64,000 nt of DNA from Kiritimatiellia bacterium (GTDB taxonomy: Bacteria; Verrucomicrobiota; Kiritimatiellia; RFP12; JBMNHG01), in contig JBMNHG010000008.1 in assembly GCA_050950285.1 (NCBI GenBank), forward strand, positions 248,001-312,000, in the 5' to 3' direction. Below, piece by piece: positions 23,301 to 55,830 of the stretch (position 1 is its first letter; every line of letters begins with the position of its first letter). The translations under genes were made by a program, and so were the position numbers. A model generated the notes under the pieces. It searched no databases. It worked only from the letters and a program-made list of their open reading frames with translations, and had not been told where the DNA came from.

Positions 23301-23620
23301 GGTGCGACCTCCCGGATGCTCGCGGCACCGATGCAGTCCTTGCAGCAGGCCATCAACAGCCCCATGCGGTCATTCGGATCCAGTTTCCAGGATTGCGTGG
23401 CCACATTCAATAGCCAGCCTTCCGGAATCAGCCCGTCGAAAAACGGGAACAGAAAACGGCTCCGATAGGGTTCAGCCCGCAGAGGCAGGCGCGCGCTAAC
23501 GGGAATAGCATCCGGGCGGGCGATGTAGTCGCGGTCATACTGGAACGTAAAGCCGCCTTCGGCTTCCTCGGCGAGGCGACCGGCTAGCGTTCCGAACAGG
23601 AAGACATCAGCTCTGCGCAT
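23297..23620 (-). CDS. HipA N-terminal domain protein (HipS-like)
   Basis: AGRLAE..FTFQYD..PVSARLP..FPFFDGLIPEGW..DCIGA. Confidence 0.87.
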   Translation of the reverse strand: MRRADVFLFGTLAGRLAEEAEGGFTFQYDRDYIARPDAIPVSARLPLRAEPYRSRFLFPFFDGLIPEGWLLNVATQSWKLDPNDRMGLLMACCKDCIGAASIREVAP

Positions 23621-23825
23621 CGGGCACCTCCCGTTGTTGCGGGACAGGGCCGAGTTCGGCACCGAACAGGTTCAGCACGATGTTGACCTTGTCCATGCGC
23701 AGGGTCGGCTTGCCGCTCTCCAGTTCACGGAGGAACCGCAGGCCGACGCCGGCGCGGTCGGCCAGTTGCATCTGGGTCAGTCCATACTGTTTCCGCTTGC
23801 CGCGGACAAACGATTGAAGCGTCAT
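23607..23825 (-). CDS. HipB-like XRE HTH regulator
   Basis: LTQMQLADRAGVGLRFLRELESGKPTLRMDKVN. Confidence 0.87.
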   Translation of the reverse strand: MTLQSFVRGKRKQYGLTQMQLADRAGVGLRFLRELESGKPTLRMDKVNIVLNLFGAELGPVPQQREVPDAQS

Positions 23826-23829
23826 TACT

Positions 23830-23926
23830 GTATCCTCATCGGGTACGAAAGTGCCCTGTTTCTCAGATTTAACCCCGATAGGGTATAATGTCTGAAAAGA
23901 CGACCGAAATGTACCCGATAAGGTGT
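23830..23926. promoter_or_regulatory. Candidate HipB-like operator boxes
   Basis: Three imperfect copies of palindrome TACCCGATCGGGTA upstream of the HTH gene (~23833, ~23872, ~23912). Confidence 0.45.
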
Positions 23927-25531: not shown

Positions 25532-25575
25532 TTGACAAGTACGGTCACCCGTGATAAGTTCGGCGCGCCAAACTT
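25532..25575 (+). promoter_or_regulatory. Sigma70 promoter with overlapping palindromic operator (candidate DtxR-family box)
   Basis: TTGACA(25532)-17 bp-TAAGTT(25555); AAGTTCGGCGCGCCAAACTT at 25556-25575. Confidence 0.7.
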
Positions 25576-25608: not shown

Positions 25609-26367
25609 ATGACGGAAGCGTTGAGCATCAGCATTGAAAACTATCTGGAGACGATCTTTCTCCTCATTCGGGAGCATACGGTTGCCCGGTCGAAGGATAT
25701 CTCGGATCGTCTCGAGGTGAACCGGTCGTCCGTGACCGGCATGTTGCAGACCCTGCGTGACCGGGGACTGGTGAACTACGAGCCCTACGGTTTCGTCACC
25801 CTGACCGCCGAGGGCGAGAAGATCGCCAGCCGCGTCCTGCGGCGGCATGAGGCGCTGCGCGACTTCATGGTGCATGTGCTGGCCATCGACGAGGCCGAGG
25901 CCGACAAGGCCGCCTGCCACATGGAGCACGGCATATCGTCGCGCGTCGTGGAGCGATTCGTCGAGTTCGCGGATTTCGTCAAGACCTGCCCCAGGGCGGG
26001 CGCGAAGTGGGTACACGGCTTCGGGTACCGTTGCGAGGAGGCGGCGGTCGAGCCGCATAACTGCGAGCGGTGCATCGAGCAGTGCCTCGAGGATGTCAGG
26101 AAGAACCAGAGGAAAGGAACAGAGAGTGTCATGACCATTCCACTCAGTGAGTTAAAACCCGGCGAGAAGGCGCAGATTGAGAAGGTCGCCGGTCAGGGTG
26201 CCGTGAAGCGGCGCATCCGCGACATGGGCGTCACCACGGGCAGCCTGGTCGAGGTGGTGCGCGTGGCCCCGCTGGGAGACCCCATCGACGTGAGGATCAA
26301 GGGCTACCATCTGTCGCTCCGCAAGGGGGAGGCGGCGGATATCAGCGTGAAGAGGGTCAACGCATGA
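25609..26367 (+). CDS. DtxR/MntR-family metal-dependent regulator with C-terminal FeoA domain
   Basis: ENYLETI, ARSKDIS..SVTGML, RRHEAL, ACHMEH; C-terminal LSELKPGEKA..RVAPLGDPI..LSLRKGEA. Confidence 0.9.
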   Translation: MTEALSISIENYLETIFLLIREHTVARSKDISDRLEVNRSSVTGMLQTLRDRGLVNYEPYGFVTLTAEGEKIASRVLRRHEALRDFMVHVLAIDEAEADKAACHMEHGISSRVVERFVEFADFVKTCPRAGAKWVHGFGYRCEEAAVEPHNCERCIEQCLEDVRKNQRKGTESVMTIPLSELKPGEKAQIEKVAGQGAVKRRIRDMGVTTGSLVEVVRVAPLGDPIDVRIKGYHLSLRKGEAADISVKRVNA

Positions 26368-26633
26368 GGTGCGCAGCCATGAACCCGGCCTTGTGGATGC
26401 CTCTGAGCCTGGTGCCGGCAGGGCACTCGGTGCGGCTGCGGCGTGTGCAGGCCGGCAGTGGGCTGGCCGCCCGGCTGACCGCCATGGGTCTGCTGCCGGG
26501 AACACAGATACAGGTGTGCCACAACGACCGCAACGGGCCGGTGATTCTCGGAATCAACGGCAACCGGCTGATGCTGGGACGCGGCATGGCGGAGAAGGTC
26601 TCGGTAGAGGATGAAGGGGTGCAGCCGTCATAA
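26364..26633 (+). CDS. feoA: Ferrous iron transport protein A (start may be 26379)
   Basis: RLTAMGLLPG..GPVIL..RLMLGRGMAEKV; between DtxR and feoB. Confidence 0.85.
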   Translation: MRCAAMNPALWMPLSLVPAGHSVRLRRVQAGSGLAARLTAMGLLPGTQIQVCHNDRNGPVILGINGNRLMLGRGMAEKVSVEDEGVQPS

Positions 26634-26665
26634 GACGGACATCCCCACTCTTTTTTTTGTGTTTA

Positions 26666-26685
26666 AAGTTTGGCGTGGCGAACAA
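26666..26685 (+). promoter_or_regulatory. Second candidate DtxR-family operator upstream of feoB
   Basis: AAGTTTGGCGTGGCGAACAA, 16/20 to reverse complement of the 25556 palindrome. Confidence 0.55.
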
Positions 26686-26733
26686 TTATCGCCTTGCCGT
26701 ACTACAGGACGCGTAACGCGCAAAGGGAAATCA

Positions 26734-28797
26734 ATGAAGACGATCATGGTTGCACTGGCCGGCAACCCGAACTCCGGCAAGACAACGCTGTTCAACAACA
26801 TCACCGGCTCGCGCCAGCATGTCGGCAACTATCCCGGCGTGACGGTCGAGAAGAAGGAAGGCACCTGCCGCCACGCGGGGCAGGATCTGAAGGTCGTGGA
26901 TCTTCCGGGCACCTACAGCCTCACCGCCTACTCGATCGAGGAGCTTGTGGCGCGCAACTTCATCATCGACGAGAAGCCGGATGTGGTTGTCAACGTGGTG
27001 GATGCCTCGAACCTCGAGCGGAACCTCTACCTCGGGGTCCAGCTTCTGGAACTCGGCGTCCCCGTGGTCTTCGCCTTCAACATGAGCGATGTGGCCCGGT
27101 CGCGGGGGATCGAGTTCGATCTCGACGCGCTGGCCTCGCGGCTGGGGGCGCCGATCGTCCCGACGGTCGGCAACAAGAATGTCGGCACCACCGAACTGCT
27201 GGACGCGGTGATCCGCGTTGCCGGGGCGGGCCAGCCCGCCTCGGCAACGGAAATCAACTACGGCGCCGATATCGAGCGCTCCATCGGGGCCGTGCGCGAG
27301 GTGGCGCAACGCCATTCCGGTCCCGCCGACGACACGGAAGCCCGCTGGACGGCCGTGAAGCTCCTCGAGAACGACAAGGAGGTCGCCGGGCGCTTCACCG
27401 CGCCGGAGGTGCGCGAGACCGTCCGCGCCGAGCAGGAGCGGATCGCGAAGCTCCTGGGCGACACGGCGGAGATGATCATCGCCGACCGCCGCTACGGCTT
27501 CATCTCCGGCGCGTGCCGCGAGACCGTGCGCTCGACGGTCGAGGCGCGGCGCACGCGCTCGGACCGCATCGACGGGATCGTCCTGCACCGCTTCTGGGGC
27601 ATCCCGATCTTCCTGGTTCTGATGTACCTGGTCTTCTGGCTCACCTTTACCGTGGGCACCCCGCCCATGGAGTGGATCGAGGGGTTCTTCGGTTGGCTGG
27701 GCGAGACGGTGTCCGGCTGGTGGCCGGCGGGCTCGGAGAGCCTGCTCAAGTCGCTGCTGGTGGACGGCATCATCAGCGGCGTCGGCGGGGTGCTCGTCTT
27801 CCTGCCGAACATCCTGCTGCTGTTCCTGGCCATCGCCGTGCTGGAGGATTCCGGCTACATGGCGCGGGCGGCCTTCCTGGTGGACCGGCTCATGCACAAG
27901 ATCGGGCTGCACGGCAAGAGTTTCATCCCCATGCTGACGGGCTTCGGCTGCTCGATTCCCGGCATCATGGCCACCCGCACGCTGGAGAGCCGGCGCGACC
28001 GGCTCACGACGATGCTGGTGCTGCCGCTGATGAGCTGCGGCGCGCGGCTGCCGATCTACGCGCTGATCATCCCGGCCTTCTTCCCGCAGGCCTGGCACGC
28101 GCCCATGCTGTGGATCATCTACCTGACCGGCATTGTCCTGGCCATAGTCTGCGCCAAGCTGCTGCGCTCGACGCTCTTCAAGGGCGAGTCCGTGCCGTTC
28201 GTCATGGAGCTGCCGCCCTACCGCATGCCCACGCTCAAGGGCGTGCTGATCCACATGTGGGAGCGCGGCAGTCTCTACCTCAAGAAGGCCGGCACGGTCA
28301 TCCTGGGTATTTCGATCCTCCTGTGGGTGCTGACCAGTTTCCCGCGGCTGAAGAGCGTGGATCCCGGCCTCTCCCCCGGGGAGCGGCAGGCCGCCGAACT
28401 CTCGCACACCATCGCCGGAAGGATCGGCCACGCCATGGAGCCGGTCATCAAGCCGATGGGGTTCGACTGGCGCATCGGCACGGCCATGATCGGCGCGTTT
28501 GCGGCGAAGGAGGTCTTCGTGGCGCAGATGGGCATCGTGTATTCCGTGGGCGAAGCCGACGAGGAGTCGGAGCCGCTGCGCGACAAGCTGCGGGCCAACT
28601 ACTCGCCGCTGGTCGGGTTCTGCATCATGCTCTTCATGCTGATCTCCGCGCCGTGCATGGCGACCATCGCGGTCACGAAGCGCGAGAGCAATTCATGGAA
28701 GTGGGCCTTGTTCCAACTGGGCGGCCTCACGGCGCTGGCCTACGTGGTGACGTTGGCCGTGTACCAGATCGGCTCGGCCCTCGGAATCGGAATCTAG
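26734..28797 (+). CDS. feoB: Ferrous iron transporter B
   Basis: GNPNSGKT, VGNYPGVTVEKK, DLPGTYSL, GFGCSIP, MSCGARLP, AAKEV. Confidence 0.96.
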   Translation: MKTIMVALAGNPNSGKTTLFNNITGSRQHVGNYPGVTVEKKEGTCRHAGQDLKVVDLPGTYSLTAYSIEELVARNFIIDEKPDVVVNVVDASNLERNLYLGVQLLELGVPVVFAFNMSDVARSRGIEFDLDALASRLGAPIVPTVGNKNVGTTELLDAVIRVAGAGQPASATEINYGADIERSIGAVREVAQRHSGPADDTEARWTAVKLLENDKEVAGRFTAPEVRETVRAEQERIAKLLGDTAEMIIADRRYGFISGACRETVRSTVEARRTRSDRIDGIVLHRFWGIPIFLVLMYLVFWLTFTVGTPPMEWIEGFFGWLGETVSGWWPAGSESLLKSLLVDGIISGVGGVLVFLPNILLLFLAIAVLEDSGYMARAAFLVDRLMHKIGLHGKSFIPMLTGFGCSIPGIMATRTLESRRDRLTTMLVLPLMSCGARLPIYALIIPAFFPQAWHAPMLWIIYLTGIVLAIVCAKLLRSTLFKGESVPFVMELPPYRMPTLKGVLIHMWERGSLYLKKAGTVILGISILLWVLTSFPRLKSVDPGLSPGERQAAELSHTIAGRIGHAMEPVIKPMGFDWRIGTAMIGAFAAKEVFVAQMGIVYSVGEADEESEPLRDKLRANYSPLVGFCIMLFMLISAPCMATIAVTKRESNSWKWALFQLGGLTALAYVVTLAVYQIGSALGIGI

Positions 28798-28807
28798 GAG
28801 GGCGGCC

Positions 28808-28975
28808 ATGTGGGAGAATCTAATCGTGGTTGTCGTTGTCGGCGCGGCAGTCTTGTTCGTCGGGCGCGCGTTGTGGCGCGACATGCGGGACGAGGCCGGC
28901 CGCGGATGCCGGGGCTGCAGGGGCTGCGACCGTCGGGACAATGCGAAAGGAGCGTGCCATGGCATCGACGCATGA
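28808..28975 (+). CDS. FeoB-associated Cys-rich small membrane protein (55 aa; not in ORF track)
   Basis: MWENLIVVVVVGAAVLFVGRALW..GCRGCRGC..C; AGGAG RBS after feoB. Confidence 0.75.
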   Translation: MWENLIVVVVVGAAVLFVGRALWRDMRDEAGRGCRGCRGCDRRDNAKGACHGIDA

Positions 28976-29315
28976 GGCCGTGTTGGCGCGGATCGAAGAG
29001 CTCTACCGCATGCTGTTCGCGCATAGCGGTTACGGCGAAATGGCGATCGAGATTCGCTTTCTGCGCAAGCACGAGAAAGAGGTGTTGATCAAGTGCGGCA
29101 AGCAGTACCGCTTCATTGTGCCTTGCGACAGTCCGACGGAAGCGGTCGACCCGGGTTGCGAAGCCGACGCGGGCGCGCATGGAAGAATTGAAAGCAGCGC
29201 GGGCGCAGGGCGTCCGCCGGAACGACGTGTACAAAAGACGAAGGAAGCACGGAACAAAGCCGATCCCGCAGGGCGGGCGGCGGCCGTGTCGGGAAAGGAG
29301 TTGCGCATCGAGTGA
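28959..29315 (+). CDS. Small hypothetical protein
   Basis: AAGGAG RBS; MASTHEAVLARIEELYRMLFAHSGYGEMAIEIRFLRKHEKEVLIKCGKQYRFIVPC. Confidence 0.7.
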   Translation: MASTHEAVLARIEELYRMLFAHSGYGEMAIEIRFLRKHEKEVLIKCGKQYRFIVPCDSPTEAVDPGCEADAGAHGRIESSAGAGRPPERRVQKTKEARNKADPAGRAAAVSGKELRIE

Positions 29316-29321
29316 AACATC

Positions 29322-29426
29322 GGTTGCGGGAGCGGTTCCCGCGCCATGGAATCTGCAAGACATGCCGGACGGGCTGACCGAGGCGGGAGCCGTCCATGAA
29401 AGAAAAACGGGCATCGAACGATGCTC
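29322..29426 (+). ncRNA. Candidate structured cis-regulatory RNA, copy 1 (5' of prepilin 1)
   Basis: 71 nt 69/71 identical to 31786-31856, plus a 3' GGGCA hairpin in both copies. Confidence 0.5.
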
Positions 29427-29449
29427 CATCAAGTGAAAGAAAAAACAGC

Positions 29450-30292
29450 ATGAAAACGAAAACGAAAACGAAAATGAACAAAAGTGGTTTCACCCTGATC
29501 GAGCTGCTGATTGTGATCGGCCTGCTCGGTGCGCTGGTCGCGCTGATCCTGCCCAGGCTGACGGCCGACCGCGAGGAGGCCATGGGCGACGTGTGCGACT
29601 ACAACCAGGCCGGCACCGTGCGCGTGCTGACCCAGTACGTGGACATGTTCGGCGCCTACCCCGCCGGCATGCACAACGGCATGCAGACGGCGTCGGGCTC
29701 ACCGGAGGCGATGGAAGGCCTCCCCGAGGCGCAGGAAGACCACATGGTCACCCAAATCGCGACCACGCGGCTGACGCTCGACGCCAACCAGGCGAAATCG
29801 CTGGTGGACGCAGGCATCAAGTCCATCGCCTACGGCACGGGCTACAACATCGTCGACGTGGCGCAGGATGTCGTCGTGGCGCAGGCTTGCGCCGCCGATG
29901 GCTCCAACCCCTGGTTTGACGACTCCGACCCTGCGGTGGAGATGACGTTCGACGGCATCGCGATCAGCGACTGGGCCCAGGCCACGGCGGGGGCGACCCC
30001 GATCTGGAACGAACAGGGCGGCGCGGGCCCGGTGGTCTGCCTCTGGATCACGCCGACCATCGACTGGGCGAAGGGCGACGGCGGCAACACCGACTGGACC
30101 AAGGGCGCCGTCGAGTACGGCATCAGCATGGAAGGCAAATGCCCGATCCCGACGGTGGCCACCAGCCAAGGCGGCGCCGACGTCGAGGTGGACTTCGCCT
30201 ACTACATGGCGTACTTCAAGGTGTACAACGACGGCACCCCCGCGCGCATGATCGGCAGCACCTGCCCGGAATGCGGCGTGCTGAATCCGTAA
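29450..30292 (+). CDS. Large type IV prepilin-like protein 1
   Basis: KSG|FTLIELLIVIGLLGALVALILP class III signal; ends TCPECGVLNP. Confidence 0.88.
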   Translation: MKTKTKTKMNKSGFTLIELLIVIGLLGALVALILPRLTADREEAMGDVCDYNQAGTVRVLTQYVDMFGAYPAGMHNGMQTASGSPEAMEGLPEAQEDHMVTQIATTRLTLDANQAKSLVDAGIKSIAYGTGYNIVDVAQDVVVAQACAADGSNPWFDDSDPAVEMTFDGIAISDWAQATAGATPIWNEQGGAGPVVCLWITPTIDWAKGDGGNTDWTKGAVEYGISMEGKCPIPTVATSQGGADVEVDFAYYMAYFKVYNDGTPARMIGSTCPECGVLNP

Positions 30293-30304
30293 CCTGAACG
30301 CAAA

Positions 30305-30359
30305 ACCCCGGCTGCGGGGGTTCACGCCCCCGCAGGCTTCACGCCCCCGCAGCCCTTTT
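30305..30359 (+). terminator. GC hairpin after prepilin 1 with duplicated 3' arm and T tract
   Basis: GGCTGCGGGGG TTCACG CCCCCGCAG...CCCTTTTG; 31 bp identical to 31731-31761. Confidence 0.6.
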
Positions 30360-30384
30360 GGAATTTTTCGTGCGCAGACATCAC

Positions 30385-30804
30385 ATGAAGACAACAACCG
30401 GAACCAACAGGCCGCTTTGCACGGCCGTGCTGGTCTTGTATGTGGCGGGGGCGTTGCTGCTACCCGCCCTTCACAAGTATTTTTCCGGGTGCGTCTGCGC
30501 CGACGGCATGAACGGCCTGGTCCGGCGGTGTTGCCCGGCCTCCCATGCGCATGGCGACAACATCGCGGACGACCCGCAAGACGCCAAGCCAGACAAGCCA
30601 CCCCACGATCCGGCCACCTGCGCGATCTGCCAGCTCGCGAACATCCCCATCCACACGGCGTCCATGGCGATCGCGACGCCGCAAAACGGGCCTGTTGAAC
30701 CCGTTCCGCCCGCCGTTTTCCGGCAACCTGACATCCAGACGCCCCGTCTGCACCCCTTCTCCTGCGGTCCTCCCGCCTGGCTTCATTCCCCAGGCATCAT
30801 CTAA
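30385..30804 (+). CDS. DUF2946-like His/Cys-rich protein
   Basis: N-terminal hydrophobic helix, LH, SHAH, HDPATCAICQL, Pro-rich tail ending SCGPPA. Confidence 0.6.
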   Translation: MKTTTGTNRPLCTAVLVLYVAGALLLPALHKYFSGCVCADGMNGLVRRCCPASHAHGDNIADDPQDAKPDKPPHDPATCAICQLANIPIHTASMAIATPQNGPVEPVPPAVFRQPDIQTPRLHPFSCGPPAWLHSPGII

Positions 30805-30896
30805 CACGAACAGACGGTCGGCGCGAACGCGCCGAGCCCGTCGATACTACGCGGCTTCCCGAAGAACGCCGCGAAAGACCAAAGGAAAATCAAGGA

Positions 30897-31721
30897 ATGA
30901 ACACAAACAAAACGATGAATTTGACGACGAACAAGAACGGCTTCACCCTGATCGAACTGCTGATCGTGATCGGCTTGCTCGGGGCGCTGGTCTCGCTGAT
31001 CCTGCCGCGACTCTCGGCCGACCGCACAGAAGCCCTGGGCGACGTGTGCGACTACAACAAGGCCGGCACGGCCCGGGCGCTCATGCAGTACGAGAACGTC
31101 TTCGGCCGCTACCCGGCCGACCTGCACAACGGCTTGCAGGGAACCGACGCCGCCGCGCTGGCGATGGAAGGCCATGCGTCCCCGCAGACGGAACGCATGG
31201 TGACCCACATCGATACGACCCGGCATCAACTGACGGCCGAGGAGGCGGCCTCGCTGTCTTCGGCGGGCATCACCAGCATTTGCTCCGGCACCGGTTTCAA
31301 CAGCACGCCGGTTGCCGCCGGCGTACACGTGGCGGTCGCGGCCGCGGCCGACGGATCCAACCCCTGGGCCGGCGGCGGGAAGCCCGAGATCACCTTCGAC
31401 GGCGTTCTCGTCAGCGACTGGGCCGACGGCTCCGGCGGGCCAAGCTGGAATCAAGGCAAGACGGGGCCGATCGTCGTGCTCTGGGTCGCGCCGACCGTCA
31501 ACTGGGCCGGTGGCGGCGGGGGCAACGGCGACTGGACCAAGGGGGCGGTCGAGCTGGGGATCAGCCTGGAAGGGCAGTGCCCCGTGCCGACGAAATCGAC
31601 GACGGGCGGCGATCCCGACTTCGCCTACTACATGGCGTACTTCAAGGCGTTCAGCGACGGCGTCACGCCGGCGCGCATGATTGGCTTGACGTGTGCCGGA
31701 GGAGGCACGCTGAACCCGTAA
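30897..31721 (+). CDS. Large type IV prepilin-like protein 2 (paralog of 29450-30292)
   Basis: NG|FTLIELLIVIGLLGALVSLILP; shared GDVCDYN, DWTKGAVE, FAYYMAYFK, PARMIG. Confidence 0.88.
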   Translation: MNTNKTMNLTTNKNGFTLIELLIVIGLLGALVSLILPRLSADRTEALGDVCDYNKAGTARALMQYENVFGRYPADLHNGLQGTDAAALAMEGHASPQTERMVTHIDTTRHQLTAEEAASLSSAGITSICSGTGFNSTPVAAGVHVAVAAAADGSNPWAGGGKPEITFDGVLVSDWADGSGGPSWNQGKTGPIVVLWVAPTVNWAGGGGGNGDWTKGAVELGISLEGQCPVPTKSTTGGDPDFAYYMAYFKAFSDGVTPARMIGLTCAGGGTLNP

Positions 31722-31730
31722 TATCACTGC

Positions 31731-31763
31731 ACCCCGGCTGCGGGGGTTCACGCCCCCGCAGCC
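31731..31763 (+). terminator. GC hairpin after prepilin 2
   Basis: GGCTGCGGGGG TTCACG CCCCCGCAGCC; no T tract. Confidence 0.45.
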
Positions 31764-31785
31764 TGTCTCGGACATGATGGCTATT

Positions 31786-31883
31786 GGTTGCGGGAGCGGT
31801 TCCCGCGCCATGGAATCTGAAAGACATACCGGACGGGCTGACCGAGGCGGGAGCCGACCGCAAACGACGGGCACGGATGTGCC
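31786..31883 (+). ncRNA. Candidate structured cis-regulatory RNA, copy 2 (5' of flavodoxin)
   Basis: Near-identical to 29322-29392; GGCAC GGAT GTGCC 3' hairpin. Confidence 0.5.
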
Positions 31884-31914
31884 GCGAAACCAAAGGACAA
31901 CAGAGAAGAAAAAG

Positions 31915-32424
31915 ATGAAGATCGGAATCTATTACGGAAGTACAACCGGCAACACGAGGAGTGCCGCCGCCGCGCTAGCCGATGCGTTGAAAGGCGCGGG
32001 CGAGGTCGCCCTGCATGATGTCGGAAGCGACGGGCTCGCGGGCATGGCCGACTGCGACCTGATCCTGCTCGGCAGCTCGACGTGGGGTCTCGGAGACATG
32101 CAGGACGATTGGGTCGCACACCAGGATTTGCCGGGGATCAACCTCGAAGGAAAGACCGTTGCCGTCTTCGGCACGGGCGATCAAACGGGGTTCTCGGATT
32201 CGTTTGTCAATGCGATCGGCACCCTCGCCGATTCCGCCGAGAAGGCGGGGGCGCACCTGGTCGGTGCCTGGCCGACCGACGGCTACGACCTCCTGGAATC
32301 CACCGCCGTTCGCAATGGGCGCTTCGTCGGGCTGGCCTTGGACGAAGACAACCAGGCCGACCAAACCCAGACCCGCATCGCGCAATGGGTGGCGCAACTG
32401 AAGACGGAACTCGGACTGTGCTGA
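31915..32424 (+). CDS. fldA: Long-chain flavodoxin
   Basis: IYYGSTTGNT, LGSSTWGLG, VFGTGDQ, FVGLALDEDNQ, RIAQW. Confidence 0.92.
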   Translation: MKIGIYYGSTTGNTRSAAAALADALKGAGEVALHDVGSDGLAGMADCDLILLGSSTWGLGDMQDDWVAHQDLPGINLEGKTVAVFGTGDQTGFSDSFVNAIGTLADSAEKAGAHLVGAWPTDGYDLLESTAVRNGRFVGLALDEDNQADQTQTRIAQWVAQLKTELGLC

Positions 32425-32425
32425 C

Positions 32426-32794
32426 ATGAGAGTCTTCTGCCACCACATTTACGAGTACCAGAAAGGGGTACGCAACCTTGTGCTGCACACGCTTCCCGCC
32501 TCGACCCGCCCGGAGGTCGAGCGCAAGCTCGAAGCCAAGGGCATCGCCTACCTGGTTTGCCCCCTCGGAAAACACCAGATCAACGTGTTCTTCGGGGACG
32601 GGCACTGCGTTGAGGTCGTGCGACGCATCGGCAAATCCAGCTTGTGCGACTACACGCCGGAGGAGGACTTCATGCTGGGGATCATGCTCGGCTACGACCG
32701 GCTGCGCCAGTGCAAGCGCTATCTGGAACGCAGCCGCCTGCGGAAGCCGTCCGCGCAAGGGCCGTCCATTCTGGAGAAAGAGAAGGCGGGATGA
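32426..32794 (+). CDS. DUF2023 family protein
   Basis: HHIYEYQKGVRNLVLHT, INVFFG, TPEEDFMLGIMLGYD; adjacent to flavodoxin. Confidence 0.8.
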   Translation: MRVFCHHIYEYQKGVRNLVLHTLPASTRPEVERKLEAKGIAYLVCPLGKHQINVFFGDGHCVEVVRRIGKSSLCDYTPEEDFMLGIMLGYDRLRQCKRYLERSRLRKPSAQGPSILEKEKAG

Positions 32795-33543
32795 ACACGA
32801 AGGGGACAGGGAGCCGTCAAGGCATGGCGCCCCGACCGGCGCCGGTCGGCGGCGGGCATCGGTGCGGGGGAGGCGGCGCCTGCACGGGCTGCCTGACCGG
32901 AAACCCCTGCCCCGCCTGCCGCGAACGACAGAACGGGGCGACGGCCGCCGGTGCACAGCCGCTGGTTCGCGGCGCGGCCGGGCGTGCTGGCGGCTTCACC
33001 CTCATGGAGATGCTGATCGTGATCGGCCTTCTCGGGGCGCTGGTCGCCTTGATCCTGCCGAAGCTGACCGTGCAGAAGACCTGGGCGGTCGACGAATCCA
33101 TGGCGCCGGCCGAGATGATGGACATCCGCCGCGCCTACGCGGCGTTTCAGGCCGACTGCCTCCCGACGGCGGCGGACCGCGCCCAGATCGGGCGCTACGG
33201 CCTCGCGGTTCTGATGACGACCAACCTCGCCTGGTCAACGGGGTGGTCCTTTCCGATGACTTTCGATCCGCGCCGCGGCAAGGGCTGGCGCGGCCCCTAT
33301 TTGCAGCCGGAAGGCGTCCGCCGCGTCTATCTCGACGAGGAGGGGCAGTCCCTGGCGGGCACGGGGCCGACCGCCGAAATCCCGGTCGTTCACGACCCGC
33401 GCCATGCCACGGACGCCGCCGACGCCGCGGAACGCTTCTACCGGGTGCAGATGCGCACCAACACCCTTTACCTCGTCTATGTCGGCGCCGACGCGGTGTT
33501 CGGCTCCGACGACGACGTTGCTCAGCCATTGGAGACGCCATGA
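32791..33543 (+). CDS. Type IV prepilin-like protein 3 with long Cys-rich leader
   Basis: ATGA-coupled start; GG|FTLMEMLIVIGLLG; GWRGPYL (GspG-like motif). Confidence 0.85.
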   Translation: MNTKGTGSRQGMAPRPAPVGGGHRCGGGGACTGCLTGNPCPACRERQNGATAAGAQPLVRGAAGRAGGFTLMEMLIVIGLLGALVALILPKLTVQKTWAVDESMAPAEMMDIRRAYAAFQADCLPTAADRAQIGRYGLAVLMTTNLAWSTGWSFPMTFDPRRGKGWRGPYLQPEGVRRVYLDEEGQSLAGTGPTAEIPVVHDPRHATDAADAAERFYRVQMRTNTLYLVYVGADAVFGSDDDVAQPLETP

Positions 33544-34529
33544 GCCTGCCCTGCCATGGAACCGGTTCCAGATCCGGGCTGACGCTCATCGAGCTCGTGG
33601 TCGTGCTGGCGTTGCTGGCCGGGCTCGCGGCGATGACCTTGACCGGGGTGGGCGACCTCGGCAACCGCGGGCGGTACGACGAGACCGCCACGCGCCTGCG
33701 GCTGATCCGCGAGGCCGTGGTCGGCAACGGCGTCGAGCCCGGGCGCTTCGTGCGCGACATGGGGCGGCTGCCGATGGTGCATGACGACGCGGACGGCGTG
33801 CGGCTGGAGGAATTGTGGCGCGACGCGGGCGGCATTGGCTACGGTTCGGTGACGAACAGCCTGGCTTCCGGAGCGTGGCAATGGCCCGGGTGGGCCGCTT
33901 TCGGCGGTCAATTGCCGGGTTCGGTCGAGCTTGCCTGCGGCTGGAACGGCCCCTACCTGATGGTGGACGACCCTTCCACGGCCAAGAGCTACGACGGCTT
34001 CGGAAACGCATGGCGGGTTTCGGGAAGCGGGGCGGGCGACGTGATTGCGAGGGTGACAAGCCTCGGCTCCGACAACGCGGTCGGCGGGACGACCTGGGAC
34101 GAAGCGGACCAGACGCTCGACCTGGGCGCCCTGCTGCCGGAAACCGAGCTGACCGTCGTCGTCAAGGCCCGGAACAGCACCAACGCGCAAGACGTCGTCT
34201 GGCGCCCCGTGGAGCCGATCGATGCTTCCGCGACGGCGGCGGACACCCCGCCCTACCGGTTGCACAAATTGCACGTCGCCCTGTTCGTTCCCGAGGTCGG
34301 CGCCGACGCCGCCGCGTTGCGGCGCGCCATCCTGCCGGCGGTTTCGACCGATGTGGCCGGGTCGGTGACGTTCACCGGCCTGGCGCCGACGCGGTGCCGG
34401 GTCTTCGCCTACGGCTACCTCGGCGATCCGCCTGAGGCCGCCTCGCTTCAGACAAGCGGCCTGGAGCTTGAGCCGATGACGCTGAACCCCGGGCGCAACA
34501 TGATCACTTTGCATTTGAGGAAACCCTAG
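33540..34529 (+). CDS. Type IV prepilin-like protein 4
   Basis: RSG|LTLIELVVVLALLAGLA; FVRDMGRLP, GWNGPYL, DGFGN. Confidence 0.85.
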   Translation: MSLPCHGTGSRSGLTLIELVVVLALLAGLAAMTLTGVGDLGNRGRYDETATRLRLIREAVVGNGVEPGRFVRDMGRLPMVHDDADGVRLEELWRDAGGIGYGSVTNSLASGAWQWPGWAAFGGQLPGSVELACGWNGPYLMVDDPSTAKSYDGFGNAWRVSGSGAGDVIARVTSLGSDNAVGGTTWDEADQTLDLGALLPETELTVVVKARNSTNAQDVVWRPVEPIDASATAADTPPYRLHKLHVALFVPEVGADAAALRRAILPAVSTDVAGSVTFTGLAPTRCRVFAYGYLGDPPEAASLQTSGLELEPMTLNPGRNMITLHLRKP

Positions 34530-35915
34530 ATGAAGCTTTTTGGACACGGAGGAGCGCGGGTCGTCGCCGTTCACGACGGCCTGGCATGGCGCGCATACGA
34601 CATGCGACCGGCCCGCAGGGGGTGGGTCTGCGACGGATGCGCGGAGGAGCCCGCGCGCGGCGGGCGGCAGATGCCGAAGACGATTCTCGATTTCATCGCG
34701 AAATCCCGCGCGAAACGCCTGAGGGTGCTGCTCACGGGCGACGTACACGCCCTGGCCCCGGCCATCCCCGAGGACGCCACGGACGAGGAGCTTCACACGG
34801 CTCTGGCCTACGAGGCGCAGGGCGAAGCGGGGCTGGAGGCGGCGGGGCACCGCCTGGCGGCGGCGCGAGCCGACTTGTACGAAATGGGGGGCGAACGCGC
34901 GACGCTGCTGGCGGCGGGCGTCGAGATCGAGCGGATGGAGCGCTTCGCCTCGGACGCCGAGGGCGAAGGGGTCCGCTTCGAGGGCGCGGGCTCGCTTGAG
35001 CTGGCCGTGCTGGCCGAACATGCCCGCCGCGCGCCGAACCGGCGCTTGCTGCTGGTGCGCGAGCGCACGAGCTTCTATGCCGTGCCCGCGAACGACCCGC
35101 AGTCGTTTCTGGTCGCCACCCTGCCGCTGGGGCTCGATGCGGCGTCGGATCCGACCGCGCGGGAGCGCGCCGGACGCGCACAGGAACGGCTGCGCATGCA
35201 CGACGCCATCCCCATGACCGTGGTTCTTTGCGGCGAGGCCGAGGGGCGGCGCGAGCGCCTGGCCCCGTTTCTGGGCGCATGCGCGGATGTGGAATTTCTG
35301 GATCTCCGCGACATCGAGGAGGCCGCGCTGCGGGCCGGCGCGGGCGGTCGTGTGGGCGGCGTCGTGGAAACGTGCCCGTGGATCGGGCTGCCGCCGCCCC
35401 CGCGCGATCCGCACCGGCATGGCACCGTGATCCTGTTTGTCATTCTGGCCGCCTCGCTCGTCTGGGCCGGCGCGAGCAAGCATGGCCTGGAGGAGGACTT
35501 GTGCGCCGCGCGCGCCAGGCGCACGGCCTGGAAATCGCTGGAAGGCGAGCGCGAGAAGGCCGCGAACGAAACCAAGGCGCTGCGGGATCGCCAGTCCGCC
35601 ATCCTGGAGAGGAAGGCGCTGCTGGAAAACCGGCGCCGCCTGCCGCACGGGCTGCTGCCGCTGCTGGCGACGCTGGCGGAACGCATGCCCGCCTATTCGT
35701 GCCTGCTCTCCGTGAAGCAACGCGACGACGACGGCTTTGACGTGGTCGGCCTCACCCAATGGCAGGACGGGCTGCCCCAGCTCGACGCCGCGCTGCGCGA
35801 CATGGGGGAGCGCGAGGGCCTGAGGCGCGAATTCGGCGGACTGGAGGCGGTTGAAGAACGGCGGTACGCTCAGCGCTTCAAGTTCTCCGTGTCGCCAGGA
35901 GGGAGCCGGCCATGA
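34530..35915 (+). CDS. PilM/PilN-like (GspL-like) platform protein
   Basis: Cytoplasmic domain, single TM (VILFVILAASLVWA), coiled coil, PilN-like tail; synteny. Confidence 0.6.
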   Translation: MKLFGHGGARVVAVHDGLAWRAYDMRPARRGWVCDGCAEEPARGGRQMPKTILDFIAKSRAKRLRVLLTGDVHALAPAIPEDATDEELHTALAYEAQGEAGLEAAGHRLAAARADLYEMGGERATLLAAGVEIERMERFASDAEGEGVRFEGAGSLELAVLAEHARRAPNRRLLLVRERTSFYAVPANDPQSFLVATLPLGLDAASDPTARERAGRAQERLRMHDAIPMTVVLCGEAEGRRERLAPFLGACADVEFLDLRDIEEAALRAGAGGRVGGVVETCPWIGLPPPPRDPHRHGTVILFVILAASLVWAGASKHGLEEDLCAARARRTAWKSLEGEREKAANETKALRDRQSAILERKALLENRRRLPHGLLPLLATLAERMPAYSCLLSVKQRDDDGFDVVGLTQWQDGLPQLDAALRDMGEREGLRREFGGLEAVEERRYAQRFKFSVSPGGSRP

Positions 35916-36568
35916 TCAGGGCGATTCGACGCGCCTTGCGCCAGTGGAAGCGCGAGTTCCTGGCCTTCTGGAGCCGTTTCACGGCGTTCCACCGGATCGT
36001 GATCGGCATCCTGCTCGCTATGGGCGTTGTCTTCCTCGCCCGCACGCGCATGCTGGATCCGCTCGAAAGGGAGCTGGCCGCCGTGCGCAAGGAGCTGGCC
36101 GACAAAGGGGTTCCCGCCCGGGTGCCATCGGCGGACGCGGACGAGGAAGTCCAGCAGGAGCTGCTTCGCGCGGAGAACCTCCGGCGCAGCATCGAAAACC
36201 AGATGGGCGAGCTGGCCGCCATCGAGGCGACGACCGATTTGCGCCTGGACGCGGGCAAGGCGGACGCCCATGCCGCCCTCCTCGCAATGGCCGGCCGCCA
36301 CGGGCTGCGCGTGTTGAAAAACGCCGCCGCCGAGCCGCCGGCGGGCGGGACGATTCCCGTGGAGGCTTCCACCTACGAGCTGGCGGGGCGCTTCGCCTCC
36401 ATCTACGGATTCCTGGACGATGTGCGGCGCGGGCCGATTCTCTGGGAGCTGCGCGATCTGTCGATCGTGTTGCTGGACGAAGGCGATCGCCCCGGCGGCG
36501 CCGCCGCCCCGCCGTTGAAGCTCGGCTTCACCCTTGTGCTGCGCCGCTACGACGGAGGCGGGAAATGA
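35912..36568 (+). CDS. PilO/GspM-like protein
   Basis: TM, coiled coil, YELAGRFASIYGFL ferredoxin-like fold motif; synteny. Confidence 0.6.
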   Translation: MIRAIRRALRQWKREFLAFWSRFTAFHRIVIGILLAMGVVFLARTRMLDPLERELAAVRKELADKGVPARVPSADADEEVQQELLRAENLRRSIENQMGELAAIEATTDLRLDAGKADAHAALLAMAGRHGLRVLKNAAAEPPAGGTIPVEASTYELAGRFASIYGFLDDVRRGPILWELRDLSIVLLDEGDRPGGAAAPPLKLGFTLVLRRYDGGGK

Positions 36569-38022
36569 GCGCCAGGCGCGTCGTCGATCTTTCAAAGGTG
36601 GTCGCCTCCGAGGCGGCGCTGGCCAAGGTGCCCGGAAGGCTGGCCCGGCGCTACGGCCTCCTCCCGGTGGGGCTGGACGGCGAGACGCTGAGCGTGGTGC
36701 TGGCGAACCCCGACGACCCGATGGGCGTGATGGAGCTCGAAAGCCGCCTGGGCCTGCATGTCAAGACGCTCGCCGCATCCCGCCCGGAAGCCGTTGCGCG
36801 CGCCATCGAGCGCTACTATGCGGGCGCGGATGGCGACGAGCCCCCGACCGCGCTGGCCGCGCTCGAGCGGCTGGTCAACCGGGCGATCCAGATTCACTGC
36901 TCCGACATCCACCTCGACCCCGAGGACGGCGCGGGCGTTGCGCGCATGCGCGTGGATGGCATGATGCGCGTCGTCGGCGAATACCCGCCCGCGTTCATGG
37001 CCGACTTGGTCTCGGCCGTCAAGGTCGCCGCGCGGCTCGACATTTCCGAGCGTCGTGTGCCGCAGGACGGCCAGATCGTGATGGACAGCCTGGGCGAGTC
37101 CATCGCCATGCGCGTGGCGGTCGTCCCGACCACGCACGGGGAGAAGGTCACGCTGCGCATCCTGGCCACCGCCGCCGTGTCGGAGGAGCTCGACCGGCTC
37201 GACGCCCTGGGCATGACTGAACGCCATTACGGCATGATGCACGCGGCCCTCGAGCAGCCCTACGGCGTGATCCTCCTGTCCGGCCCGACCGGGAGCGGCA
37301 AGACGACCACCCTCTATGCCGCGTTGCGCTATTTGCGCGAACCGGGCACGAGGCATATCCTGACAATCGAGAATCCGGTCGAAATCCCGCTGAAGGGCGT
37401 CAACCAGATCCAAATCGACGGCGAGCGCATCACTTTCGCGAAGGCGCTGCGCAGCGCGTTGCGGCACGACCCGGACGTGATCATGGTGGGCGAGATCCGC
37501 GATCCGGAGACGGCCGACATCGCCGTCAAGAGCGCCCTGACGGGCCACCTGGTCCTGGCCACCCTGCACGCCAACACGTCGGTGTCCGTCATCACCCGTC
37601 TGCTGAACCTCGGGATCACCCGCGAGCTGGCCGCCTCGACCCTGCGCCTGGTCGTGGCCCAGCGGCTGGTGCGCCGCCCCTGCCCGCACTGCTCGGTCCT
37701 GGAGCCGGCGACCGAGGCCATGTGCGCGGAGTTCGGCTGGGATCCCGCCGCGCCCCCGCCGGTGCCGCGCGTGCGCGGCTGCGCGTTTTGCGGACAGCTT
37801 GGCTATGCCGGGCGGTTCGGGCTTTACGAGATGGTGCCGGTGGACCGGGAGCTGCGCGACCTGATCGTCGCGGGGGCGGCCGAGGACAGCATGGCCGACT
37901 TCGTCTTCGGGCGGCGCAAGCTCGCGACGCTGGCGCAGGATGGCGCCGAAAAGGTGAAGGCGGGGGCGACCACGCCCGAGGAAGTGCGGCGCGTGACGTT
38001 TCTCGGGGAGGATGAAAGCTGA
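36565..38022 (+). CDS. pilB: PilB/GspE assembly ATPase
   Basis: SDIHLDP, LDISERRVPQDG, GPTGSGKTTT, LRHDPDVIMVGEIRD, CPHC..CAFC. Confidence 0.9.
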   Translation: MSARRVVDLSKVVASEAALAKVPGRLARRYGLLPVGLDGETLSVVLANPDDPMGVMELESRLGLHVKTLAASRPEAVARAIERYYAGADGDEPPTALAALERLVNRAIQIHCSDIHLDPEDGAGVARMRVDGMMRVVGEYPPAFMADLVSAVKVAARLDISERRVPQDGQIVMDSLGESIAMRVAVVPTTHGEKVTLRILATAAVSEELDRLDALGMTERHYGMMHAALEQPYGVILLSGPTGSGKTTTLYAALRYLREPGTRHILTIENPVEIPLKGVNQIQIDGERITFAKALRSALRHDPDVIMVGEIRDPETADIAVKSALTGHLVLATLHANTSVSVITRLLNLGITRELAASTLRLVVAQRLVRRPCPHCSVLEPATEAMCAEFGWDPAAPPPVPRVRGCAFCGQLGYAGRFGLYEMVPVDRELRDLIVAGAAEDSMADFVFGRRKLATLAQDGAEKVKAGATTPEEVRRVTFLGEDES

Positions 38023-39257
38023 TGCCGGCCTTTCGATACACGGTGTTGCAGAACGGCGCCCGGCGCGAGGGGGTCGTCGAGGCGGAATCCGAGCGCGCGG
38101 CGGCCGAGCGTCTGCGGGCGGACGGGGCGAGCGTCCTGTCGCTCGCGCCGGCGCCCGCCGGAGCGGCTCCCCGGCAATCGCCCCGCTGGCTCGACTCCCT
38201 TGCGGATCGCATGTTGATCCGTTCCCAGAGCATCGAGCTGACCTTGCGCCAGCTCGGATCCCTCCTGCGCGCCGGCGTCCCGATCCTGACCGCGCTGACC
38301 GCGCTCGCGCGCACCGCCACGCCCCGGTTGAGCCGGGCGCTTGAGCGCACCGCCGGCGTCATACGCGAGGGCAAGTCCTTCAGCAAGGCCCTGGCCATGA
38401 ACCTGCCTGGCGTGGATCGCGTGACGATCGGCCTGCTGGGGGTCGGGGAATCCAACGGCACGCTGGACGCCATGGCCGTGCATGCCGCCGGCCTGAAGGA
38501 ACGTTCGCGCAAGACGCGCGAGCAGATCGTCCAGGCGTTCAGCTACCCCGTGGTGGTGATGCTTGCGGCCATGGGCGTGGGCGCCTACATGGTCCGGAGC
38601 GTGTTTCCCGTGATCATGAAGTTCATCGCCTCCACCCGGAAGACCGCGGAGCTCCCCCTGCCCACGCGCATGGTCGTCGCCCTGGACGGCTTCCTGTCGA
38701 CGTACGGAGTCTATGTGCTCATCGCGCCCTTTGCGTTGGCGGTGCTGGTTGTGGCGCTGCGGCGCTCCCCCCGCACCGGCGAGCTGGTGGATCGGGCCGC
38801 GCTGCGGCTGCCGCTGCTGGGCGGCGCGTTCAAGTTCCACGCCAACGCGATGTGGTGCTCGACGCTTGGTTCGCTGCTGGCCAGCGGGCTGGACGTCCTG
38901 GCCGCCGTGGACCTCGTGCGCGGCACGATGGGCAACATGTTCTACGCCGCGCAATTCGAGCGCGTGCGGGAGATGCTGCGCGGCGGCTCCAGCCTGAGCA
39001 AATGCATCGAGGCGACGGAGCTTCAGCGGCTGACGCCCATGGCGCACACGCTGGTCAGCGTTAGCGAGGAGGGCGGGCACATGGACGACAGCCTGCTTGA
39101 GGTCGCGCGTTTTTCGGAAGACGAGCTCAACCGCCGCGTGGCGCTGCTGAGCAAGCTGGTGGAACCCGCCATGTTCGTGTTGGTGGGGGGATTCGTCGGA
39201 CTGGTTTATTTCGGCTTCTTCCTGGCGGTGCTGACGGCAACGCGGGCGGGGCGGTAA
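38022..39257 (+). CDS. pilC: PilC/GspF inner-membrane platform protein
   Basis: RQLGSLLRAGVPI, GESNGTL, FSYP, LVEP; two T2SSF repeats. Confidence 0.9.
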   Translation: MPAFRYTVLQNGARREGVVEAESERAAAERLRADGASVLSLAPAPAGAAPRQSPRWLDSLADRMLIRSQSIELTLRQLGSLLRAGVPILTALTALARTATPRLSRALERTAGVIREGKSFSKALAMNLPGVDRVTIGLLGVGESNGTLDAMAVHAAGLKERSRKTREQIVQAFSYPVVVMLAAMGVGAYMVRSVFPVIMKFIASTRKTAELPLPTRMVVALDGFLSTYGVYVLIAPFALAVLVVALRRSPRTGELVDRAALRLPLLGGAFKFHANAMWCSTLGSLLASGLDVLAAVDLVRGTMGNMFYAAQFERVREMLRGGSSLSKCIEATELQRLTPMAHTLVSVSEEGGHMDDSLLEVARFSEDELNRRVALLSKLVEPAMFVLVGGFVGLVYFGFFLAVLTATRAGR

Positions 39258-39276
39258 GGGAAAAGGAACGCAGAGA

Positions 39277-39777
39277 GTGAAACGATCAGGTGTTTGGATA
39301 CGGATTGCCGTTGTGGCCGCCGGTCTTGGAGTGCCGGTCATGGCCCCGGCGGCGGATGCCGCCGCCGCGACCAATGCGCCGGCGGAACCCGTTGTGCAGG
39401 CCGGGAGCCCGGCGCCCGGCGCGGGCCGGGATGCGGCGGAACCCGCAATTCCGATCGGCGACCCGTTTGCCATGCGGGGGCTTGCGGAAGGCGACGGGTT
39501 CGTCAGCGCCGGCCCCGCGGCGATGCCGCCGGGTATCCGCGTCGTCGCGATTCTGGCGGTCGCCGGCAGGCCGCCGGTCGGGGCGCTGTCGATTCCCGGC
39601 GCCGCCACCCTGCATTTCATCCGCGAGGGGGACGTGATCCAGGTGGATCCCCCTGAAGAAACCGCGGCCAAGGGCGCGGCCGGCTCGCAGTTGTATCTGC
39701 TGGTGAAGTCCATCACGCACAACCAGGTGGAACTCGCACCACGCACGCGCCCGCAGGATGTGAGGATCTACCGATGA
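39277..39777 (+). CDS. PilP/GspC-like periplasmic protein
   Basis: Signal peptide, DPF motif, FIREGD; immediately upstream of secretin. Confidence 0.55.
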   Translation: MKRSGVWIRIAVVAAGLGVPVMAPAADAAAATNAPAEPVVQAGSPAPGAGRDAAEPAIPIGDPFAMRGLAEGDGFVSAGPAAMPPGIRVVAILAVAGRPPVGALSIPGAATLHFIREGDVIQVDPPEETAAKGAAGSQLYLLVKSITHNQVELAPRTRPQDVRIYR

Positions 39778-41714
39778 AGAGACAAGGATTGGCAGGCGTG
39801 ATGAAATCGCACAGGAGCATCATGGTCTTGAGTCTGGCCGCGGCCCTGGCGGGGGCGTTGGCTTCCCCGGCGGCGGCGCATACGGAAGCGGTGCAAACGG
39901 CGGCCGAACCGGTGGTTATCGAATCCGTGTTCGTCCGCGACATGGCCTTGCGCGACTTCGCCGAGCTGATGACCCGCGGATGCGAGTCGGAATGGAAGGT
40001 GCTGGTCAGCGAGCAGGCGGGGGACAAGCGCATCAGCTTCTACCTCTCCGACACCGGCATCGAGGAGACGCTGCGGTCGATTTGCGCCACCTACGGCCTG
40101 TGGTATCGCCAGGCGCCACGCTCGGATATCGTGCAGATCATCACGATGGACGAATACCGCAAGGGGCTGAACCTGTATGCCGACGAGGCCGTCGAGGTCG
40201 TTCCGGTCATGTATCCGGCGCCGGAGGAAATCGGCGACACGCTCGCGCGGCTGTTCCAGGACCGGGTGGTCTGGGATCCGCCCCCCGAGGACATCGCCGA
40301 CGACATGCCGCACATCGAGAGCGCCCTCGACCGCATGGACACCATGGCCGATCGCGCCACGCTGGTGGATACCGAGAATCTTGACGGCACAGGCGGCAGC
40401 TCTTCCTCTTCCTCTTCCTCGTCCTATCGCTGGCGGTCGGACGATTCGTGGAGCCGCTCGGACCGCTATGGCCGCGGGAGCCGCTCGGACCGCTACGGGC
40501 GCGGATACGGGTCGGGTCGGCATGGCGGCGGAACCGGCAGATCCGGCGAGGAGCAAACGGTCGAGCAGGTGGTCGAGCAGCAGCGCCGCGCCATGGAGGC
40601 GCAACAGGCGGCCAAGGGAATCCCCGAGGATCTCGCCGGACGCAACGACCGGCCGGGGCTGGTCTACATCTCCGCCTCGCGGTCGGCAAACGCCCTGATT
40701 CTACGGTCGAGCGATGCGGCGTCGGTCGAGACCATCAAGAACGTCATCCGCGATCTGGACAAGCCCAAGCCGCAGATCCTGCTCGAAGTCAAGGTGCTCG
40801 ACATCCAGCTCGGAGACGAAGAGGCGCGCGGCGTGGACTGGCTGTTCCAGCGCGAGCTGAACTCGGACGGCGTCATGTTGAGCGGCGGCCGCGCGACCGG
40901 CATCACGACCGAACCCGGCAACGTGATCCGCTCGTCGGACCCCCTGTCGCTGGTCCCCCAGGGCACGGGGCTGGATACCCTGGCCGCCGTCTTCTCCGTT
41001 GTCAGCGACGAGGTCCGCGCGCGACTCCAGTTGCTGGAGGACCAGCGGCGCGTCCGCACCCTGGCGACGCCGAGCCTGCTCGTGGCCGACAACGAGGCGT
41101 CCCGCATCTTCATCGGCAGCGAGGTGACGGTGCTGGAGAAGGTCGAGCCGGAGACGAGCTTCATCGGCACGGAGAACCCGCAGCCGGTGACGACGTACAC
41201 CGTCACCTCCCCGCGCAAGCGGATCGGAACCACGTTGCTGATCACCCCGAAAATCCACGCCGACCGCACGGTCACGATCCGGCTCTTGCAGGAGGAAACG
41301 CAGCTTGGCGCGCAACGGACGATCGCGTACGGGCAGACGGCCTCCGATCAGTTCACCTCGCAGGACGTCGAGGAACGGTCCGTCACCACGACGGTGCTGG
41401 CCAAGGACGGCAACACCATCGCGATCGGCGGCCTGATTCGCGAACGCGCGGAGGAACGCGAGACCGGCGTGCCGGTCCTCATGCACATCCCCCTCCTGGG
41501 GCAGCTCTTCAAGCGCACCGTCCGCTCCGAGACGCGCAGCGAGCTGCTGGTGCTGATCCAGCCCCGCATCCTGCTGGCGCCGGGGGAAGGCGAGACCGTT
41601 TCCCGCGCCGCGATGGAGCGGGCGGCCCGGAGCGCCGAGGAGCTGGGCCGGAAGTGGAGGGATTTTGAAAAATCGGCCGAGGAACACGCAAAGGAGGTTT
41701 CAGATGCCGAGTGA
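39774..41714 (+). CDS. Secretin (PilQ/GspD family)
   Basis: NALIL..IRDLDKPKPQILLEVKV, LATPSLLVADNEAS, ITPKIH, IGGLI, GVPVLMHIPLLGQLFK, SELLVLIQPRI. Confidence 0.92.
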   Translation: MKRQGLAGVMKSHRSIMVLSLAAALAGALASPAAAHTEAVQTAAEPVVIESVFVRDMALRDFAELMTRGCESEWKVLVSEQAGDKRISFYLSDTGIEETLRSICATYGLWYRQAPRSDIVQIITMDEYRKGLNLYADEAVEVVPVMYPAPEEIGDTLARLFQDRVVWDPPPEDIADDMPHIESALDRMDTMADRATLVDTENLDGTGGSSSSSSSSSYRWRSDDSWSRSDRYGRGSRSDRYGRGYGSGRHGGGTGRSGEEQTVEQVVEQQRRAMEAQQAAKGIPEDLAGRNDRPGLVYISASRSANALILRSSDAASVETIKNVIRDLDKPKPQILLEVKVLDIQLGDEEARGVDWLFQRELNSDGVMLSGGRATGITTEPGNVIRSSDPLSLVPQGTGLDTLAAVFSVVSDEVRARLQLLEDQRRVRTLATPSLLVADNEASRIFIGSEVTVLEKVEPETSFIGTENPQPVTTYTVTSPRKRIGTTLLITPKIHADRTVTIRLLQEETQLGAQRTIAYGQTASDQFTSQDVEERSVTTTVLAKDGNTIAIGGLIRERAEERETGVPVLMHIPLLGQLFKRTVRSETRSELLVLIQPRILLAPGEGETVSRAAMERAARSAEELGRKWRDFEKSAEEHAKEVSDAE

Positions 41715-54621: not shown

Positions 54622-54706
54622 TCATTTCTGCATGGCTGCCACCTTTCCTGGCTCAAAAGCCCATGAAGAGACGCATGGGAGTTGCTAAACCCCGAAGGAA
54701 TCCGTC

Positions 54707-55828: not shown

Positions 55829-55830
55829 CC

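Follow-up and report, generated by a model that had tools for sequence, protein, structure and literature searches.

A conserved five-cysteine module encoded as a type IV prepilin leader, a free protein or a DUF2023 tail: a putative metal-binding peptide probably released by the prepilin peptidase

Cleaved signal peptides can have a second function, as in the enterococcal pheromones derived from lipoprotein signal peptides and the zinc-binding stable signal peptide of arenaviruses. Those peptides are of class I or II and are handled by other peptidases, and the product proposed below would resemble them in being functional once cleaved. Pilins of Synechocystis have reportedly been linked to iron uptake. 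The class III leaders of type IV pilins (IPR012902, TIGR02532) are treated as disposable, and we found no report in the open-access literature of one carrying a functional domain. As described in passages of PMC10191384 and PMC4471445, a class III leader is cytoplasmic and is cleaved after its Gly; the leaders reviewed in PMC4471445 measure 6-26 aa. FeoC of E. coli, according to PMC8749426, binds [4Fe-4S] through C-x4-C-x2-C-x5-C. The fldA-DUF2023 pair is, according to PMC10434189, strongly induced under iron starvation in three Bacteroidetes, among the most induced genes. This operon is represented by PG1857/PG1858 and structure 2GUK, and the P. gingivalis DUF2023 protein has 120 aa and lacks a tail of the kind described here.

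We analysed a 64,000-nucleotide stretch (the window) of a Kiritimatiellia genome (contig JBMNHG010000008.1, positions 248,001 to 312,000). Here the same gene pair lies directly upstream of a prepilin gene but, unlike in Bacteroidetes, within a pilus locus, where it is followed by a Cys module that is fused to DUF2023 elsewhere. Genes from the DtxR-type regulator to PilT occupy one strand, in the following order.

25556 to 25575, plus strand: 20-bp palindrome over the -10/start region of a sigma70-like dtxR-feo promoter, with similar palindromes at the same place in loci L006, L007 and L112.
25609 to 28975, plus strand: DtxR-type regulator with a FeoA domain, FeoA, FeoB and FeoB-associated Cys-rich protein, from domain matches.
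28959 to 31721, plus strand: small conserved gene, two paralogous larger pilins and a DUF2946-like ORF (below cut-off), from sequence and domain search.
31918 to 32424, plus strand: long-chain flavodoxin (TIGR01752, above cut-off).
32426 to 32794, plus strand: DUF2023 gene (PF09633, 142 bits), ATGA-coupled to the prepilin and carrying the module as a C-terminal tail elsewhere.
32791 to 33543, plus strand: prepilin ORF of 250 aa, or 239 aa from the alternative start Met12 at 32824.
32791 to 32994, plus strand: hydrophilic class III leader of 68 aa ending in Gly-1 (maximum 19-residue hydropathy 0.49).
32863 to 32928, plus strand: five-Cys module, C25-x5-C31-x2-C34-x5-C40-x2-C43-x2-R46, from alignments of homologues.
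32995 to 33540, plus strand: mature pilin with FTLME, Glu+5 and a 21-residue hydrophobic helix, from sequence, hydropathy and model.
33540 to 42810, plus strand: further prepilin, three PilM/PilO/PilP-like genes (labelled from position alone, with no family match), PilB/GspE ATPase, platform protein, secretin and PilT.

With PilB, platform protein, secretin and PilT in the locus and PilD in the genome, the system resembles a type IV pilin system. The earlier note on this DNA had suggested a link between pilus assembly and iron status, and the locus indeed looks iron-related. The palindrome is a candidate DtxR/MntR-type operator of the DtxR-FeoA regulator; a similar one in L085 lies upstream of the small conserved gene. 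Within the pilin block, the gene at 28959-29315 has a conserved core of about 60 aa without a Pfam or NCBIfam match. In most related loci, those without Feo, DUF2023 or the Cys module among them, it immediately precedes the first pilin, and it makes a better locus marker than the module. The larger pilins (29396-30292 and 30897-31721) and their orthologues end in a conserved, TCPECG-like Cys tail with a second Cys-Pro motif upstream, which could form a disulfide or a metal site in the extracytoplasmic head. Before or after the pilin genes (29280-29400, 30295-30360 and 31720-31900), recurring non-coding elements and hairpins suggest duplicated pilin cassettes with terminators.

The ORF at 32791 has the sequence features expected of a type IV prepilin. 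Its hydrophilic leader ends in Gly, followed by Phe+1, Glu+5 and about 21 hydrophobic residues (mean hydropathy 2.56), which AlphaFold2 models as a helix at 71-91 (pLDDT 86-90). The protein scores 16.9 bits against TIGR02532 (cut-off 16.3) and matches PF07963 below cut-off (E 0.0024), and a prepilin peptidase (PF01478, G000:C8) accompanies the ATPases, platform protein and secretin of the locus. From its position, the product is probably a minor pilin. The head domain gave no Foldseek match at E<=0.001 on a low-confidence model (mean pLDDT 57.5).

The length of the leader sets it apart: 57-68 aa, compared with 6-26 aa in the reviewed class III leaders of PMC4471445 and a median of 14 in homologues without the motif. 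The earlier note had described a 68-aa leader containing C-x5-C-x2-C-x5-C-x2-C and ending in G|FTLME, translated by ATGA coupling to DUF2023 and expected to stay in the cytoplasm. These points are borne out: the Cys lie at 25, 31, 34, 40 and 43, the start ATG (32791-32793) overlaps the DUF2023 TGA (32792-32794), and the leader is hydrophilic. The note had missed a second in-frame ATG, Met12 (32824), which is the start called in the database entry (P0002). The leader measures 68 aa from Met1 or 57 aa from Met12, with all five Cys in either. We favour Met1 because the 87%-identical orthologue keeps the same ATGA coupling. In-frame ATGs occur at -68 and -57 and none nearer the cleavage site, and the interval from the Cys to that site is free of ATG, GTG and TTG, as the note had stated, which rules out a downstream start that would exclude the Cys.

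The reading frame also holds in independent assemblies. Contigs from other runs covered 32643-33316 without differences (X7), 32533-33173 with 13 substitutions and no gap (X12), and 32467-33018 in a variant with 75 substitutions and a sole, frame-preserving indel of 3 nt (X13); a further run covered 32870-33119 without differences (X16). Together with P0003 and nine more fused homologues, this rules out an assembly artefact. At least half of the stretch's words were present in 13 of the 24 listed runs, mostly from digesters and bioreactors; none of the runs listed was an RNA dataset containing the stretch.

Alignment of the homologues defines a module of about 22 residues with the pattern C-x4-7-C-x-G-C-x2-G-[NH]-P-C-x2-C-x2-R, in which the five Cys, Gly33, Gly37 and Pro39 are invariant across 15 rows (alignment A5). 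A search of all six frames of the 4.05-Mb genome gave a single occurrence of the strict motif and six of a loose five-Cys pattern. This rarity, with the conservation in homologues, argues that the motif exceeds chance. AlphaFold2 predicts two short helices over the motif, with pLDDT 75-78 across residues 31-50 and a poor model elsewhere.

The module is not confined to pilin leaders. We read six loci as DNA, all of them type-IV-filament loci with flavodoxin/Feo-type neighbours and all with the module at a constant position, upstream of the second pilin or the assembly block. It forms the leader of a pilin in two (the window and L085), a free ORF just upstream of a pilin in two, and a C-terminal fusion to DUF2023 in two. 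In L086, the free form has 62 aa, with a ribosome-binding site and a stop of its own, and the ORF directly after it encodes an orthologous pilin without the motif. The free form of L105, a locus of the single-contig genome G079, has 80 aa and likewise its own ribosome-binding site and stop; it overlaps the start of a pilin that is also preceded by a separate ribosome-binding site. The DUF2023-tailed forms are L126, encoding P0094, and L127; both have a thioredoxin-like gene after the module. A membrane-anchored gene of this kind also lies beside the module in L105 (2278-2781, minus strand), with a His-rich tail there and in L127; the window locus has no counterpart.

Protein searches returned the same three forms. 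Among the 69 homologues in the matches listed, 11 (the window's own included) carry the motif in the leader, 54 have motif-less leaders with a median of 14 aa (4-97), and 4 are motif-less proteins with no recognisable site as called. Among 645 candidates, a profile search picked out 8 free proteins, 62-81 aa long and including that of L086. A search of 1.84 billion representatives gave nine matches: five free proteins, one pilin fusion, one DUF2023 fusion, one transposase-interrupted copy and one unrelated repeat protein. At least four DUF2023-module fusions appeared among the best 8000 candidates scored, a search that missed several known ones, and the majority of the DUF2023 genes encountered have no such module. 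The totals are 11 pilin fusions, 9 free proteins (two read as DNA, seven as gene calls only) and 5 DUF2023-tailed proteins. As far as these sequences tell, the module is an unannotated Cys microprotein family that exists independently of leaders.

It is also rare, accessory and dispensable, and all its known carriers are uncultured or little-studied bacteria. The orthologue with 87% identity (L006-L009 and L084, the nearest named one being L084, from a Kiritimatiellia MAG) has the same ATGA junction, followed by a 9-aa leader without the module. The module was not found in any of the five genomes searched that carry related pilin loci, namely that of this orthologue and four more, nor in genomes G175, G309, G108 and G404. 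A metagenome scan returned 78 loci with four true orthologues, all of one short-leader type. Across the class, at least 7 of 401 genomes gave matches to the module at E<=0.001, three with strong matches (G000, G079 and G457) and four with weak ones (E 4e-4 to 8e-4). Further scans found it in at least 1 of 319 genomes of the order, 1 of 6, at least 1 of 89 and at least 2 of 301; the counts from the larger scans, in which part of the candidates were scored, are lower bounds. The earlier note had proposed conservation of the leader Cys in orthologues as a check and had held that short, Cys-less leaders would speak against its reading. The Cys proved conserved, under amino-acid constraint, in the aligned carriers of the module. 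The proteins of 58 of the 69 homologues listed have no such motif, and the closest orthologue has precisely such a short leader at the same position, which speaks in part against the note's reading.

The fused pilins are not monophyletic, and the fusion state has switched repeatedly. To place the 10 fused rows, a tree of 67 mature pilins requires 8 changes, and well-supported branches force at least 6 of these; the tree, which leaves out P0002 and three fragments, does not distinguish gains from losses, and some short leaders counted as unfused may be truncated gene calls. A single clade of fused pilins was rejected with p-AU 9.3e-31 (25 close rows), and with 1.8e-07 when P0023 was removed. 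One leader gives a direction to such a switch: that of P0005 resembles the free proteins P0083-85 along its own length and still has their AVN tail ahead of GG|F, as would be expected after fusion through a deleted stop/start junction.

Family and fold searches yielded little for the module. At E<=1, neither the leader nor the free proteins matched a Pfam family, and a PDB sequence search with the module gave two matches only, at E about 0.4 and over the CxxC alone. In the ESM Atlas, P0085 led to two low-score unnamed clusters, residues 18-56 had no usable feature match, and structure rows stayed at TM<0.4. Fold searches used low-confidence models (mean pLDDT 57.5 and 60.5); Foldseek found none at E<=0.001 and the best VIA-align Z was 2.5, results that are no sign of a new fold. 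The nearest likeness is to FeoC, which shares the spacing of the first four Cys, the small size and the Feo neighbourhood; unlike FeoC, the module has a fifth Cys, no Pfam match, no winged helix and none of the FeoC domain, and genome G079 contains a separate FeoC-like ORF (recognised by eye) besides it. Nor does the leader match the FeoB-associated Cys-rich family (PF12669), from which it differs in being hydrophilic and in lacking an N-terminal membrane helix; the PF12669 member of the window is another gene, at 28808. Five Cys are one beyond the need of a [4Fe-4S] cluster, and Zn or Cu would be possible ligands.

We propose, at somewhat better than even confidence, that the module is a detachable cytoplasmic metal or Fe-S microprotein, released from the prepilin by PilD and acting in trans. 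It would be an accessory gene of an iron/manganese-regulated type-IV-filament locus, sited between DUF2023 and the pilin. The gene is often translationally coupled to its neighbours, so that small deletions could have fused it, repeatedly, upstream as a tail of DUF2023 or downstream as a leader of the prepilin. The prepilin would insert with its leader left in the cytoplasm, and the genome's prepilin peptidase would cut after Gly68. Since class III leaders are cytoplasmic and cut after their Gly, cleavage would free a peptide of 57-68 residues, similar in size and content to the free 62-81-aa proteins of relatives, and leave an ordinary mature pilin. Processing of so long a leader is an extrapolation, because the reviewed leaders have 6-26 aa; if correct, PilD handles leaders of more than twice the reviewed length. 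If it survives, the peptide would most likely use its Cys and nearby His to bind a divalent metal or an Fe-S cluster, and would serve as a metal or redox sensor or carrier, the pilin being its vehicle. We infer an iron-regulated operon and a partner for the peptide as parts of the same scheme. Action in trans is most likely because the module also occurs free and on a soluble protein. The release of a metal-binding peptide, one of two possibilities raised in the earlier note, is in this respect strengthened by the free and DUF2023-tailed genes; metal binding itself is a prediction. Unlike the usual class III leader, that of the window holds a conserved domain that is a separate gene elsewhere. 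If such a leader domain and a free gene can replace each other, PilD would be shown to be capable of setting free products that function in the cytoplasm.

A more specific version, which we consider possible but hold to be doubtful, casts PilD as a polyprotein processor that cuts out the Fe-S or metal microprotein, supplies it 1:1 with pilin maturation and delivers it to DUF2023, the arrangement having arisen several times from the free gene. Complex modelling bears on the partner. A model of DUF2023, the module and 4Fe-4S reached 0.39, against 0.02 for the best control, with the ligand unscored; repeated DUF2023-module runs had at least 75% of contacts in common and a partner pLDDT of at least 58. 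Of 157 solved pairs, 116 reached the mark used for such models, as did 2 of 215 mismatched pairs; those that reached it with scores of 0.60 or less are 18 of the solved pairs and both mismatches. The models thus lend weak support to DUF2023 as the leading candidate partner of the module. DUF2023 was not found in two of the five module-bearing genomes, G457 (91% complete) and G1137, both fragmented assemblies, which weakens it as an obligatory partner. The module offers a handle on DUF2023, whose gene is among those most induced by iron starvation in Bacteroidetes.

The other possibility raised in the earlier note was a gate on processing, in which PilD would gain access according to how the attached module is loaded with metal or Fe-S, so that the pilin matures only at the right iron level. 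Fusion to the pilin is the commonest form seen, and its recurrence across the tree could reflect selection for attachment. However, a gate in cis is impossible where the module is free or on DUF2023, the linker between module and cleavage site can be anything from 16 to 28 residues long and is unconserved, the nearest orthologue manages with a 9-aa leader, and in L127 a thioredoxin-like gene lies between the module and the pilin. With the fusion also switching repeatedly, we consider such gating unlikely.

A fused prepilin that stays uncleaved could instead tether a cytoplasmic metal-binding domain to the membrane by its single pass and handle iron outside the filament. There is precedent in Legionella, where, according to PMC13170364, a prepilin can aid iron acquisition without PilD cleavage, and the FeoB-associated Cys-rich proteins are likewise membrane-anchored Cys clusters. 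Yet Gly-1 and Glu+5, with the hydrophilic leader, are kept in 11 of 11 fused leaders, and the free and DUF2023-tailed forms have no membrane anchor, making this a poor prospect.

It is similarly improbable that the fusion is a tolerated accident, in which a gene of little function was joined in frame and its product is cut off and degraded without a role. The patchy distribution and clean loss among close relatives would suit such an origin. So would two aberrant sequences. P0062 reads from DUF2023 directly into a related pilin without the module, which points to labile junctions at this site, and may be a frameshift on its 1-kb contig. P0089, whose N-terminus is nearly identical to the P0023 leader, continues into an ISAzo13-type transposase fragment, an insertion just behind the module. 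Against this, the 13-residue core is 77% identical among 10 fused leaders, compared with 15% and 11% for the flanks, and the sole indel of the diverged strain keeps the frame. The motif DNA of the window differs from that of L105 at 5 positions, all third-position and synonymous, and from that of L085 at 10, of which 7 are third-position; it is therefore the peptide that is conserved, and a conserved DNA or RNA element in its place is ruled out.

The module might also act during translation, as a metal-sensing nascent peptide or a coupled upstream ORF that tunes the downstream pilin or assembly genes. It does lie at the same point of the operon in six of six loci, and genome G079 has kept it even though its adjoining pilin is only 36% identical, as against 87% for PilB. 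The downstream sequences and distances nevertheless differ among the three architectures, and the predicted helical structure over residues 31-50 looks more like a folded metal site, which leaves this a very slim prospect. Finally, a RiPP precursor modified by a radical-SAM maturase is scarcely credible: the NCBIfam RiPP_CPAC match (NF033629) is weak (best E 0.0026; 17.9 bits against a cut-off of 60) and confined to 2 of 11 members, the window's not among them, no SPASM maturase is adjacent, the SPASM-domain enzymes searched for are distant from the locus or on separate contigs in three of three genomes, and fusions at either end suit a domain more than a precursor.

Two further regions of the window were recognised by eye. 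About 20 kb downstream, 53299-60434 holds radical-SAM-like and other biosynthetic genes, with no link to the module seen. Upstream of the locus, the minus strand at 22344-23888 encodes a HipA-like kinase, a small HipA N-terminal-like gene and an HTH gene, a probable HipBA-type toxin-antitoxin module.
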